From a virus (Duplodnaviria > Heunggongvirae > Uroviricota > Caudoviricetes): a stretch of DNA of 10,013 bases. The notes under the pieces are model-generated. The model was not told where the DNA came from and made no database searches. It saw only the letters and a list, made by a program, of their open reading frames with translations. Location: positions 1-10,013 of the IMG/VR virus record IMGVR_UViG_2740892372_000013. One strand, given 5' to 3'. The position numbers and the translations under genes were made by a program. Shown one piece after another: positions 1 to 4,826 of this stretch (the first letter of the stretch is position 1; the number at the start of each line of letters is the position of its first letter).

Positions 1-85
1 GGTCTTTCCTCGTTACCAGTGCCGTCACTATGACGGTTAAACAGATGACGATCAGGGCGATTAGCATCGCCTTTTGCTGCTTCAT
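1..85 (-). CDS. hokD: Hok/Gef-family type I membrane toxin, 5' part only (first 28 codons; gene runs off the window start)
   Basis: Reverse complement of 1-85 translates from ATG (83-85) as MKQQKAMLIALIVICLTVIVTALVTRKD, the hydrophobic N-terminus typical of Hok/Gef peptides and matching my memory of HokD/RelF. AGGAG lies 9 nt upstream of the ATG. Paralog assignment is from memory; family assignment is firm. Confidence 0.7.
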   Translation of the reverse strand, partial: MKQQKAMLIALIVICLTVIVTALVTRKD

Positions 86-406
86 AGCCTGCTTCTCCTT
101 GCCTTTCGGCACGTAAGAGGCTAACCTACGTGTGTAGAGCATAGATATGGCCTCAGATTAATGTTAAGCGTCTTGCCGGACGCGTAATGTTAACTGGGGC
201 TTTTCTCTATCTGCCTTTTGGTGTTCATGCCTGAGACAGATAGCCTCAAGCACCCGCAGCAATTTTACTTAACTCCCCTTTTCCCACAAATCGTTTTTAT
301 CCCTATTGGTAATGTTCTCCCGATGTGGGATTCCCACATTGGAACGAATTCAATCAGTTAAAGACTCATCAGAATCTCACCTTTCTAAGTGCCCACAGGT
401 GAGGCA

Positions 407-435
407 TTGCAATAAAAATAGCAAACGTGTATAAA
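407..435 (+). promoter_or_regulatory. Candidate sigma70 promoter for the kinase/phosphatase operon
   Basis: TTGCAA (407-412), 17-nt spacer, TATAAA (430-435) preceded by TG. Predicted only by eye against the consensus. Confidence 0.25.
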
Positions 436-495
436 AGGAGGTAATGCATGTTTTTCCAGTCTTATCAATCCATTACTGAGAGTTAAGGGGGCGCC

Positions 496-1290
496 GTGGA
501 TCGGTGCGGTAATTATTTACTTAAAGATGGTCGCAGTTTAGGACAAGGGAGTTTTGGCGAAGTATTTAAGGTTGATGTCTATAACTTAACCCAGACCCAC
601 ATGACCACATATGCTCGCAAATACTTTTCACCTTGCCCGGACTTTGACAAGACCGCTATAAAAGAGTTGACTGATTTAAGACAGCGTTTTTTAGTTGAGA
701 TCAAAACACAATGCACTCTCAATAGAATAAACTATGATTCAATAGCGCCAATAGTTTTATTTAATACAAATGGTGATAAACCTTATTTTGTTATGGAATT
801 GGCAGAGTGTAACTTATATGAAGCCATCCGCAATGGTATGAACTACGCGGAGAGGAAGTCTGCTGTTACTCAGATTTTAAAAGGAATTATCACCATACAT
901 GAAAACAACTATATACATCGTGATTTAAAACCAGGAAACATACTTTATTATGCCGATGGAAAGTATAAAATATCTGATTTTGGTCTAGTAAAAGACAGAG
1001 ATACCTTACGGGCCGAAATCAAAACAAAATTTAAGCCTAATCACATGGGCACAGATGGATATCGAGCGCCCGAAATACATGATAGCGGTCTTTTTTCTTT
1101 TCAAAGTGACATATTTGCAGCAGGTAAAATTATCACTGATATATATCCCACAGAAAGAAGTGAAAAATTAAAAAGATTGATTGCAAAATGTTGCGCACAT
1201 TGGCCTGAAGAACGATATCAAAGCACACGGGAGTTACTGGAAGATTTTTTAAAAGTGACGGGGGAGGTAAATCATGAAGAACATAATTGA
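496..1290 (+). CDS. Eukaryotic-like (Hanks-type) Ser/Thr protein kinase, catalytic domain only, 264 aa
   Basis: GTG start with a GGGGG Shine-Dalgarno. Glycine loop LGQGSFGEV (res 15-23), beta3 lysine in YARK (K42), catalytic loop HRDLKPGN (141-148), DFG (161-163), and activation-loop GTDGYRAPE (APE 191-193). The gene is AT-rich relative to the flanking DNA. Confidence 0.85.
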   Translation: MDRCGNYLLKDGRSLGQGSFGEVFKVDVYNLTQTHMTTYARKYFSPCPDFDKTAIKELTDLRQRFLVEIKTQCTLNRINYDSIAPIVLFNTNGDKPYFVMELAECNLYEAIRNGMNYAERKSAVTQILKGIITIHENNYIHRDLKPGNILYYADGKYKISDFGLVKDRDTLRAEIKTKFKPNHMGTDGYRAPEIHDSGLFSFQSDIFAAGKIITDIYPTERSEKLKRLIAKCCAHWPEERYQSTRELLEDFLKVTGEVNHEEHN

Positions 1291-2519: not shown

Positions 2520-2876
2520 TTATTCAGTTCTGGATTTTGTCGCCCTGCGTATCCGCGCTTTCGCGTTACGCTCAATCTGAATTAGCTTTTCTATATTTTT
2601 TCGCCTTTCCCGCTCCTCCTGACGCAAGAGCCTTACATCATCTGCCAGTCTGGTTTCTCTTTTCGCCACAGAGAGCATCCAGTCAAATGGCTCCACAACT
2701 GCACCGCAGATTTTACAGCGGACCTGACGCTCTTTTTCGTCAACCCGGACAGAGGCGTGATGGCAATATGGTCTTTCCGATGGCTCATAGAGAAAATTAA
2801 CCTGATTACGTGGGTCATCCTCTTTTACCGGAAATAAAACGATATTGCTTAACTCATCTTCTGGTTTTATTTCCAT
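2520..2876 (-). CDS. Hypothetical prophage protein with Cys/His zinc-ribbon-like motif and basic coiled-coil tail, copy A (118 aa)
   Basis: GGAGAGGAG immediately 5' of the ATG. Motif C-H-H...C-x2-C (PYCHHASVRVDEKERQVRCKICG) and an Arg/Lys/Glu-rich C-terminus. Protein is identical to copy B; all 3 nucleotide differences are synonymous third-position changes. Confidence 0.7.
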   Translation of the reverse strand: MEIKPEDELSNIVLFPVKEDDPRNQVNFLYEPSERPYCHHASVRVDEKERQVRCKICGAVVEPFDWMLSVAKRETRLADDVRLLRQEERERRKNIEKLIQIERNAKARIRRATKSRTE

Positions 2877-3573
2877 GCTCCTCTCCTTTGATGCGAATGC
2901 CAGCGGCGCGGATTGCAGCGATGACTTCAGAAACTTTGTATGCCATTACCGTTTGGTAATCATCGTGAAAATCTGTTCGATGAAGCATGCTGCTACGTTC
3001 TGGGAGCGATATTTCCCGTGCTTCCAGTTCTGCAATGCGCTTCTCTGCGGATTCCAACGCCGCAACCAATTCGTCTACAGTTCCGGCAGCTTGCAGTGCG
3101 TAATCGGTAATAGCCATCTCATGATCAATTTCAGTACCGTTCTCATTCGTTGAGGTGATAGCAAAATAATCAGAGTCGATTTCGTTATCAGCTAAGTGGC
3201 GTAGCGTATCGGCAACAAGCCGGCCGTTTTCGATTAGCAGCTTCCCTTCCGTAAGCGCAATCTCCTCGTTCTCCTGGTCGCGTGATTTGATGTATTGCTG
3301 GTTTCTTTCCCGTTCATCCAGTAGTGCCAGCGCAACATTTGGATTAAAGGCAGCAATAAATTCAGCGTTTGCGTAAGCCTGAGCATCTGTTTCAACCAGG
3401 CAGTTAACATGACATTCTGCAATTACGCCACCGGGCTCTCCTTTCCATTTTTGACAAACAAAAACTCCTGTTATATTCCCATGCTGATTGCCCGATGTAT
3501 GCCCTACGATGTAGCATCCTTTAGTTGCTTTCTCTGCTGCTTCACGCAGCGCCTGATAGTCAATCTCGCTCAT
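2854..3573 (-). CDS. Ead/Ea22-like prophage protein (239 aa)
   Basis: N-terminus MSEIDYQALREAAEKAT and the segment DAQAYANAEFIAAFNPNVALALLDE resemble the conserved N-terminal region of Ead/Ea22-like lambdoid proteins (from memory). Central coiled-coil ELVAALESAEKRIAELEAR. Its ATG overlaps the stop of the upstream small ORF (ATGA). Confidence 0.6.
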   Translation of the reverse strand: MSEIDYQALREAAEKATKGCYIVGHTSGNQHGNITGVFVCQKWKGEPGGVIAECHVNCLVETDAQAYANAEFIAAFNPNVALALLDERERNQQYIKSRDQENEEIALTEGKLLIENGRLVADTLRHLADNEIDSDYFAITSTNENGTEIDHEMAITDYALQAAGTVDELVAALESAEKRIAELEAREISLPERSSMLHRTDFHDDYQTVMAYKVSEVIAAIRAAGIRIKGEEHGNKTRR

Positions 3574-3746
3574 TCATCGCCCCACTCATCACAATATGCT
3601 TCGACCGGATTTTTTCCTGCTTCATAATCATCACGCCATGCTTCAGCATCAGCAGCACTGCCACCACGTAACTCTGCATATTCCATTAACAGTTCATGCC
3701 ATTCTTCAAAACTGACGCTGTATTTAGTTGAACCAAAATCAGCCAT
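3570..3746 (-). CDS. Small acidic hypothetical protein (58 aa)
   Basis: MADFGSTKYSVSFEEWHELLMEYAELRGGSAADAEAWRDDYEAGKNPVEAYCDEWGDE. Start overlaps the end of acidic ORF B by 8 nt; stop overlaps the Ead-like ATG. Not in the ORF track (under 60 aa). Confidence 0.4.
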   Translation of the reverse strand: MADFGSTKYSVSFEEWHELLMEYAELRGGSAADAEAWRDDYEAGKNPVEAYCDEWGDE

Positions 3747-3921
3747 TTTGTTCTTCCTCTTCGTCTTTTATTTCGTGATATGAATAATTGCAGTAGTTAA
3801 AGAAAATATCTTTTGCTTCGTCATGTATTTCATCAGGCGTCGCATCATCATCCACTTCGAATTCATCCTCGAAATCTCCACCGGCTATTCCCGTTTCAAT
3901 AATTATTTTAAACTTTCGCAT
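3739..3921 (-). CDS. Small highly acidic protein, copy B (60 aa)
   Basis: ORF track entry; roughly 40 percent Asp/Glu. Conserved with copy A through synonymous-only changes except the C-terminal stop/Gln difference. Confidence 0.55.
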   Translation of the reverse strand: MRKFKIIIETGIAGGDFEDEFEVDDDATPDEIHDEAKDIFFNYCNYSYHEIKDEEEEQNG

Positions 3922-3968
3922 TTAACTACCGCCCTGCCGGACAGCCTCCTGATGTTCTGAGGGCGCCT

Positions 3969-3977
3969 CCCCCCCCC
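3969..3977. repeat. Homopolymeric C9 tract, paralogue of the C10 tract
   Basis: Nine consecutive C at the position equivalent to 2471-2480. Confidence 0.9.
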
Positions 3978-4016
3978 TCCGGTTAAGGATTAAATTTTTA
4001 ACAGAGCTAAATTTAA

Positions 4017-4373
4017 TTATTCAGTTCTGGATTTTGTCGCCCTGCGTATCCGCGCTTTCGCGTTACGCTCAATCTGAATTAGCTTTTCTATATTTTTTCG
4101 CCTTTCCCGCTCCTCCTGACGCAAGAGCCTTACATCATCTGCCAGTCTGGTTTCTCTTTTCGCCACAGAGAGCATCCAGTCAAATGGCTCCACAACTGCA
4201 CCGCAGATTTTACAGCGGACCTGACGCTCTTTTTCGTCAACCCGGACAGAGGCGTGATGGCAATATGGTCTTTCCGATGGCTCATAAAGAAAATTAACCT
4301 GATTACGTGGGTCATCCTCTTTTACCGGAAATAAAACAATATTACTTAACTCATCTTCTGGTTTTATTTCCAT
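4017..4373 (-). CDS. Hypothetical zinc-ribbon-like basic protein, copy B (118 aa; ORF track extends it to a GTG at 4430)
   Basis: Same protein as copy A. The ATG at 4373 has GGAGAGG directly upstream and is the start shared with copy A, so the 19-codon upstream extension is probably not translated. Confidence 0.7.
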   Translation of the reverse strand: MEIKPEDELSNIVLFPVKEDDPRNQVNFLYEPSERPYCHHASVRVDEKERQVRCKICGAVVEPFDWMLSVAKRETRLADDVRLLRQEERERRKNIEKLIQIERNAKARIRRATKSRTE

Positions 4374-4445
4374 GCACCTCTCCTTTGATGCGAATGCCAG
4401 CGGCAATTGAAGCCTGATAGCTAATTTCACTCACAGCACCACCTC

Positions 4446-4826
4446 CTAAAAATTCCCCTGACAGAACGCCAGTACACGCTGCATAACTTCGCTATTTCGG
4501 CACTCACTGCAAATTATGTTCTGATGCCTGTCATAGCGGCGTATTTCTCCGTCTGGTAACTTTCGAATCAATGTCTGGTCGGTTGTTTTCTCCGCTGCCT
4601 TACGCCATACGCGATACACCTGTTCTGATGCAAAAACACCGTATTTACCGGGCATGTATAAATCGCCACAAGCCAGTACATCCACAAGGCAACGTCTGAC
4701 TGAATGCCAGCCTGCTCCCGTCGCTCTCTCCAGTTGTGATATCGTCATGCGTTCATTTTTGCGTACCAGCCCGATAATTCGGGCCTTCAGTTCTTCACGC
4801 TGTTCGTGTGTAAAAGGTTTCGCCAT
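4446..4826 (-). CDS. Hypothetical prophage protein, possible winged-helix fold (126 aa from ATG; track lists a TTG start at 4841)
   Basis: ATG at 4826 preceded by GGAGG at 5-nt spacing. The stop of the upstream gene (4842-4844) lies in this ribosome-binding region, suggesting coupling. Confidence 0.6.
   Translation of the reverse strand: MAKPFTHEQREELKARIIGLVRKNERMTISQLERATGAGWHSVRRCLVDVLACGDLYMPGKYGVFASEQVYRVWRKAAEKTTDQTLIRKLPDGEIRRYDRHQNIICSECRNSEVMQRVLAFCQGNF

Follow-up and report, generated by a model that had tools for sequence, protein, structure and literature searches.

[quoted passage not shown] It is from plasmid R1 that 3′ processing and the mok-dependent translation of hok are known (reviews PMC4147584, PMC1635323). 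A recent survey of Hok proteins describes mok as difficult to identify by sequence, and it cites the chromosomal hok loci of K-12-type strains (hokA, hokB and hokC) as unable to mediate post-segregational killing (bioRxiv 10.1101/2025.08.07.668861).

Here we describe a locus of this family at one end of a 10,013-nt stretch of DNA (the window) from a Caudoviricetes virus record (IMG/VR IMGVR_UViG_2740892372_000013). Positions 1–290 almost certainly represent the regulatory half and the first 28 hok codons of a complete hok/mok/sok type I toxin–antitoxin cassette, of the hokW or 'hokD-like' subfamily, within a lambdoid prophage of Shiga-toxin-type E. coli. The ATG that stands in frame upstream of hok opens mok, the established leader frame through which translation of the Hok toxin is controlled. 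The locus is already known in kind, with no departure from the hok/mok/sok family, and the only mildly new element of the analysis is a survey of the 57-, 58- and 56-nt frames in which mok precedes hok.

Reading frames, leader RNA and predicted Sok

The sequence and structure elements of the cassette, and their conservation, were identified directly. The hok toxin gene occupies the left edge of the window on the minus strand, where codons 1–28 (85..1, ATG 85..83) open with MKQQKAM; the hok ATG is followed by MKQQKAMLIALIVICLTVIVTALVTRKD, and the frame then leaves the window. The 3′ half of hok and a 3′ fold-back element lie outside the window and were taken from identical genomes. In E. coli O145:H28 RM12581, which is 100% identical over window 1–480, the hok CDS is intact at 51 aa, with 70 aa for the long ORF in frame with it; a break in the hok ORF just beyond the window, a possibility raised in an earlier note on this DNA, is therefore absent. 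The same note had drawn attention to an in-frame ATG at 140–142, 57 nt upstream of hok and with a GAGG of its own, and the sequence agrees with it, on the minus strand. From this ATG (142..140) the 5′ part of mok (142..86) runs as a 19-codon in-frame extension (MLYTRRLASYVPKGKEKQA) to the hok ATG, with the geometry of K-12 mokC/hokC and of phage mok/mokW; the 57 nt contain no stop in this frame, and the other two frames are closed. The mok Shine-Dalgarno sequence, GAGGC (154..150, − strand; GAGG 154..151), lies 8 nt before the mok ATG, and that of hok, AAGGAG (100..95, − strand), lies 9 nt before the hok ATG, both as read from the sequence. Immediately 5′ of the latter is a small conserved stem-loop, GCC GAAA GGC (110..101), whose C–G pairs 109–102 and 108–103 are conserved in an alignment of 61 leaders.

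Since mok is in frame with hok, translation of mok itself would give an N-terminally extended Hok, as for K-12 mokC: Mok here consists of 19 aa followed by the entire Hok, 70 aa in total. On this product, which was completed from the identical genome and of which 28 Hok codons lie in the window, Pfam HOK_GEF (PF01848) scores 79.8 bits against a cut-off of 22, over residues 25–66.

A search with cmscan placed the hok mRNA leader at 255..80 (− strand), where Rfam RF01794 ('sok') matches over its full model (1–157) with 117.1 bits against a gathering score of 59 (E 8.5e-27). This was the sole match above the gathering threshold; apart from sok, an E-value search of Rfam around the locus returned only sub-threshold chance matches (ceN48, sR2, CsrC). 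Though named 'sok', the family fits the hok-sense strand and ends at the hok AUG, and is in effect the hok leader, so that the match is by itself no demonstration that an antisense RNA is made. The mok identity of the upstream ATG follows from this 117-bit match together with the +57-nt geometry of K-12 mokC/hokC and the mok/mokW annotations of phages. The earlier note had left the presence of mok and Sok in doubt, and had set its reading of an extended hok frame against a canonical mok/sok arrangement in which the upstream ATG goes unused. The RNA-family search does return the canonical arrangement, but in the canonical model that ATG is used, as the mok start. On the first doubt, the mok ATG proves canonical by Rfam, by K-12 geometry and by phage annotation, and a Sok antisense RNA is predicted by homology to sokC.

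Within the leader, the Rfam consensus structure places a hairpin around the mok start codon (154..117, − strand), closed by GAGGC pairing with GCCUC (121..117). This hairpin is predicted to sequester the mok translation-initiation region, which is also the Sok target region. In the alignment of 61 distinct leaders the 5′ helices are invariant, some pairs covary (for example AU/GC/GU/UA at columns 15/47), and GAGGC is nearly invariant and paired with GCCUC. RNAalifold on the MAFFT alignment of these leaders recovered the invariant helices only; the variable mok-start hairpin was lost through misalignment, and each variant was therefore folded separately. All 32 sequence variants of the GAGGC-to-GCCUC segment folded to a hairpin closed by GAGGC/GCCUC, at −7.7 to −15.5 kcal/mol, with the mok AUG inside the inner stem in nearly all of them despite many substitutions.

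The leader starts with a tac-like 5′-terminal element, GGGUGCUUGAGGC (255..243, − strand), which pairs with the 3′ fold-back element outside the window. In the predicted minimum-free-energy fold of the full-length RNA, taken from an identical genome, nt 1–12 pair with nt 376–388, ~46 nt past the hok stop codon, whereas in a 3′-shortened RNA the 5′ end is predicted to refold into a local hairpin. The 5′–3′ end duplex (~−21.5 kcal/mol) is conserved across loci, at ~45–50 nt after the stop codon, and it covaries: GGGUGC/GCACCC in E. coli is replaced by GGGCGC/GCGCCC in Photorhabdus and Pantoea, a compensatory change from U/A to C/G. We take this end pairing to be the tac/fbi arrangement of R1.

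As a separate observation, the predicted fold of the mRNA places the codon for Tyr47 of Hok (UAC) within a loop of 7 nt, CUACGAA, with UAGA/UCUG as its closing stem (L001 5938–5952, − strand, left of the window), and this loop resembles the TadA-recognised anticodon arm of tRNA-Arg. A-to-I recoding of Tyr to Cys has been reported for hokB and stated for hokC, hokD and hokE (bioRxiv 10.1101/2025.08.07.668861).

Upstream of the leader, a putative hok promoter (289..262, − strand) was placed from the sequence and from the conserved 5′ end of the leader, with a −35 hexamer TTGTGG (289..284), a 16-nt spacer, a −10 hexamer TAAAAT (267..262) and +1 near 255; homology to hokW-type phage loci extends to window 300. 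On the opposite strand, both ends of a predicted Sok antisense RNA of ~77 nt (134..210, + strand) were transferred by alignment from the annotated K-12 sokC; the predicted RNA is longer than sokC (59 nt) by an insertion of 18 nt at the tip of the hairpin. In its predicted fold (−31.8 kcal/mol) a single-stranded 5′ tail of 15 nt precedes a long hairpin, and the RNA ends in a UUUUCUCUAU tail. The 5′ tail is complementary to the mok start region, and the layout is that expected of Sok. A predicted sok promoter (99–127, + strand), read from the sequence, has a −35 hexamer TTGCCT (99–104), a 17-nt spacer, a −10 hexamer TAACCT (122–127) and +1 at G134, a position that agrees with the sokC-derived 5′ end. 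The Sok gene is thus a prediction well supported by homology. In a consensus promoter and terminator scan of window 1–500, the homology-inferred hok and sok promoters both fell below threshold and no terminator was flagged. The same scan returned a promoter-like site inside the leader (167..138, − strand); with 1 such site found against 0.6 expected by chance, it was treated as a chance occurrence.

The elements identified at the locus, read alongside the R1 hok/sok paradigm, suggest how it would operate, and it is from these that we infer the transcript ends, the translational coupling and toxicity in this strain. A weak promoter (~262–289, − strand) would give a stable hok mRNA starting near 255, in which pairing of the 5′ end with the 3′ element and the locking of the mok ribosome-binding site (GAGGC 154..150) in its hairpin would render the full-length RNA inert. 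Trimming of the 3′ end would then allow the RNA to refold. Ribosomes could next start at the mok ATG (142..140) and, in reading toward hok, open the hok ribosome-binding site (100..95), so that translation of hok would depend on that of mok. An unstable antisense Sok RNA (~134–210, + strand) would pair through its 5′ tail with the mok start region and block mok, and hence hok, the resulting duplex being marked for RNase III.

Activity of this kind cannot simply be assumed, since chromosomal hok loci have been cited as incapable of post-segregational killing. The locus might be an inactive relic that owes its elements to descent and no longer regulates or kills, as proposed for the chromosomal hok loci of K-12. 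The weakness of the promoter hexamers would suit such a relic, as would the lack of post-segregational killing by hokA, hokB and hokC, as cited in the Hok survey (bioRxiv 10.1101/2025.08.07.668861). Against this, none of the elements is disrupted: hok and mok, both Shine-Dalgarno sequences, the structured leader, its pairing partner at the 3′ end and the Sok hairpin with its tail are all intact, as is the early region of the prophage. The Hok protein, moreover, does not differ from the one encoded by 933W-type Stx2 phages, a group that includes Sp5 with its active hokW-sokW. We consider decay to an inactive state very improbable, and retain the reading of a complete type I cassette.

Conservation of the mok start and variation of its frame

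The mok start was surveyed by scripted analysis of loci that each encode a Hok relative, 47 of them taken from one-genome-per-species contigs and 80 from viral ones. Among the 84 distinct related loci with a recognisable leader, the distance between the mok and hok ATGs was always 56–58 nt, and the mok ATG was preceded by GAGGC; this conservation rules out a chance ORF extension as the origin of the upstream ATG. A distance of 57 nt, which places mok in frame and yields 19 aa plus Hok, was found in 67 distinct loci, including loci of Photorhabdus, Pantoea and Citrobacter at only 66–76% Hok identity. In 11 distinct loci the distance was 58 nt, giving an out-of-frame Mok of 68 aa (55–56 aa in two loci) that overlaps most of hok, and in the remaining 6 it was 56 nt, giving a Mok of 19 aa with a TGA stop that overlaps the ATG of hok (AUGA). 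The leader was wholly absent from seven further loci, the K-12-type relE junction among them. Examples of an out-of-frame mok are K-12 mokB (58 nt), the DUF5431/hok pair of a Klebsiella plasmid and the 11 fetched loci. The mok of plasmid R1 is likewise out of frame, at +58 nt, like K-12 mokB. An out-of-frame mok was expected in R1-type plasmid loci, but the one such locus that was fetched, an IncFII plasmid locus whose Hok is identical to the R1 Hok sequence used as the query, has its GAGGC-ATG mok start in frame, 57 nt upstream of hok.

Comparison of these sequences indicates that the mok start site and its RNA context are conserved, while the frame and the peptide of mok are free to vary in evolution. 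That the start is conserved and the frame is not agrees with the prevailing understanding of mok, in which its effect comes from its translation (reviews PMC4147584, PMC1635323).

The upstream ATG could also be read as a genuine alternative start, such that the 70-aa Hok, with its basic 19-residue N-terminal tail, would be a second functional isoform of the toxin with a role of its own. Ribosomes that start at an in-frame mok ATG necessarily make the 70-aa fusion, and most distinct loci (67 of 84) have mok in frame, as does the IncFII plasmid locus. Close relatives with nearly the same leader, however, have mok at +58 nt, encoding an unrelated 68-aa peptide, or at +56 nt, encoding 19 aa that end at the AUGA, and the 19-residue extension would therefore be dispensable as a protein. 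Overlap of its codons with the sok promoter, with the Sok target and with the stem-loop of the hok Shine-Dalgarno sequence explains why they are conserved at the RNA level. A separate role for the extended protein is on these grounds improbable; just as improbable, in our judgement, is the broader proposal that the +57, +58 and +56 spacings are three functionally different modes of coupling, with the in-frame 70-aa Hok a distinct isoform of its own activity or targeting. We therefore continue to treat the upstream ATG as the start of mok, and the distribution of spacings (57, 58 and 56 nt in 67, 11 and 6 distinct loci) as a compact argument that mok acts through its translation and not through its peptide. 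The conserved GAGGC-N6-9-ATG, 56–58 nt upstream of hok, could aid the identification of mok.

It was also observed that the nucleotides around and just after the mok ATG (window 128–148, − strand), the target of the Sok 5′ tail, form the most variable part of otherwise near-identical leaders (compared with L005, L069, L085 and others), with at least 32 variants. Up to 9–10 such loci occur per genome. At the level of sequence, variability of the target region would fit a diversification under which every Sok continues to recognise only the hok mRNA of its own locus.

Prophage context and the absence of relBE

Window 1–480 is 100% identical in 16 complete genomes of Shiga-toxin-type E. coli (O145:H28, O103:H2, O45:H2, O121 and some O157:H7), and the window as a whole matches E. 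coli O145:H28 RM12581 at 99.8% identity over 93% of its length, in 2 pieces. The lambdoid prophage of RM12581 carries Cro/CI, YdaT, a DnaT-like O protein, P, DUF1627 and DUF977, all on the hok strand. Next comes a kinase/PP2C pair that is encoded on the opposite strand, and after it hok, a YgiW-like gene, DUF968 and the Q antiterminator. This order places hok within the nin region, with the replication genes on one side and the Q antiterminator on the other, and in the same direction as the early operon. A segment of ~1.5 kb (window ~2850–4450) is absent from, or different in, the RM12581 prophage, and the ORFs at 2854–3573 and 4017–4430 (both − strand) have no counterpart in its annotation. 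Directly after hok lies a gene of the YgiW/YdeI family with an OB fold (L001 5466–5810, − strand, left of the window), at the same distance as in the 933W-type Stx2 phages Stx2a_F422 and Min27; from this equal spacing the two genes seem to travel as one cassette.

The earlier note had placed hok beside a kinase island, and the upstream neighbour is indeed a kinase/phosphatase pair: a Ser/Thr protein kinase (496–1290, + strand; Pkinase 110 bits) overlaps by 17 nt a PP2C phosphatase (1274–1990, + strand), both on the strand opposite to the phage early operon. The junction of hok with the kinase is uncommon, at least 80% of window 1–480 being present in 33 of 5426 complete E. coli genomes. PADLOC defence models matched the kinase (mad6, 1e-37; PD-T4-6, 1e-32; Stk2, 3e-25), with no PADLOC match for Hok or for the PP2C protein, and the best homologue in deposited phages, in Escherichia phage Flotzy, is just 39% identical. 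More unusual than the hok locus itself, the pair is probably an anti-phage or moron cassette carried by the prophage.

Relatives of the locus were also seen under other names. A locus 95.7% identical over 300 nt occurs in 'Actinobacillus phage vB_Apl-pPE4' (PP818812.1), and Hok genes 91–100% identical are found on very small contigs (275–2995 bp) labelled Acinetobacter idrijaensis, Xanthomonas pisi and a Candidatus Scatousia MAG (L021, L029, L056), these contigs being probably E. coli contamination.

A tblastn search with the K-12 proteins detected no homologue of RelB or RelE (best E ≥ 1), whether in the window or, in the identical genome, across the 6 kb to the left of it. The interval that separates the hok leader from the kinase gene (496) contains only TTG-started ORFs, 32–47 aa long. 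The observation in the earlier note that no ORF of relE size lies beside hok is borne out by both results. Its comparison with K-12 was correct in that K-12 hokD follows relBE, but not in taking that order as the expected layout, relBE-hokD being a truncated minority form. The locus and the Qin prophage of K-12 can be aligned from the 3′ UTR as far as window 99, only 14 nt short of the hok ATG; further upstream, K-12 has the 3′ end of relE. With homology ending at this point, K-12 hokD is left without mok, the leader and the sok −10 hexamer, and keeps the 3′ fold-back element without its partner. Judged from this alignment, relBE-hokD of K-12 is a derived, truncated form, and the full-leader arrangement found here is the common and complete one: at least 80% of window 1–260 (the leader and the 5′ end of hok) is present in 4013 of 5426 complete E. 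coli genomes, against 1165 of 5426 for the relE-hokD junction.

The opposite derivation, in which the locus would be a rearranged relBEF-type operon that has lost relBE, making the hokD found here the derived form, takes its plausibility from the name hokD, which PGAP gives to the gene in many genomes, and from the position of K-12 hokD after relBE. Such an origin can scarcely be credited, given that K-12 homology stops at window 99 with the 3′ end of relE beyond, that K-12 retains the fold-back element while lacking mok, the leader and the sok −10, that the full leader outnumbers the relE-hokD junction in the genomes counted above, and that the leader also occurs in other genera.

These results have value for annotation and little as discovery. 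RefSeq/PGAP annotates the 51-aa Hok only, under the name hokD, and this name leads to the wrong expectation that relBE should stand upstream.

Comparison with known systems

The locus can be set beside hokW-sokW of 933W-type Stx2 phages, where the 51-aa Hok is 100% identical to that of Stx2a_F422 and Min27 and where DNA identity over window 1–300 is 94.7% to VT2-Sakai (Sp5) and to further Stx phage records of the 933W type. These phages have the same 70-codon in-frame mok and the same YgiW-like gene downstream. The two differ in the Sok-target segment that encodes the N-terminus of Mok, which reads ATGCTCTACACACGTAGG here and ATGCTGAACACATGTAGG in 933W-type phages (MLYTRR versus MLNTCR), and in their surroundings, as the locus described here has the kinase/PP2C pair upstream and the cassette in the nin region next to Q. 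Nested ORFs of 213 and 156 nt with a common stop are annotated in the phage genomes AP012531.1, KU052037.1 and NC_010237.1, where the 213-nt ORF is labelled 'host cell-killing modulation protein' (Stx2a_F422), 'mok, modulator of killing' (Rac-SA53) or 'mokW' (Min27).

Among chromosomal loci, hokC/mokC/sokC (gef) of K-12 has the same arrangement: mokC (16751..16960) and hokC (16751..16903) share a stop and start 57 nt apart in frame, sokC (16952..17010) overlaps the mokC start from the other strand, as the predicted Sok overlaps the mok start here, and the leader has the same 5′ end, GGGTGCTTGAGGC. It differs in that Hok identity is ~80%, that the locus described here has an extra 18 nt at the Sok hairpin tip, and that hokC is chromosomal with IS186 adjacent. 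relB-relE-hokD (relF) in the K-12 prophage Qin is nearer in its Hok, at 92% identity with 28 of 28 window residues matched by HokD, and has the same 3′ UTR with its fold-back element and the same downstream DUF968/YdfU-like and Q-like genes. There, however, relE replaces everything upstream of window 99, so that the mok start, the leader and the sok −10 hexamer are missing, all of which are present here. With hok/sok (parB) of plasmid R1 and F-type plasmids, finally, the locus shares its architecture and presumed mechanism, the context in R1 being that of plasmid stabilisation.
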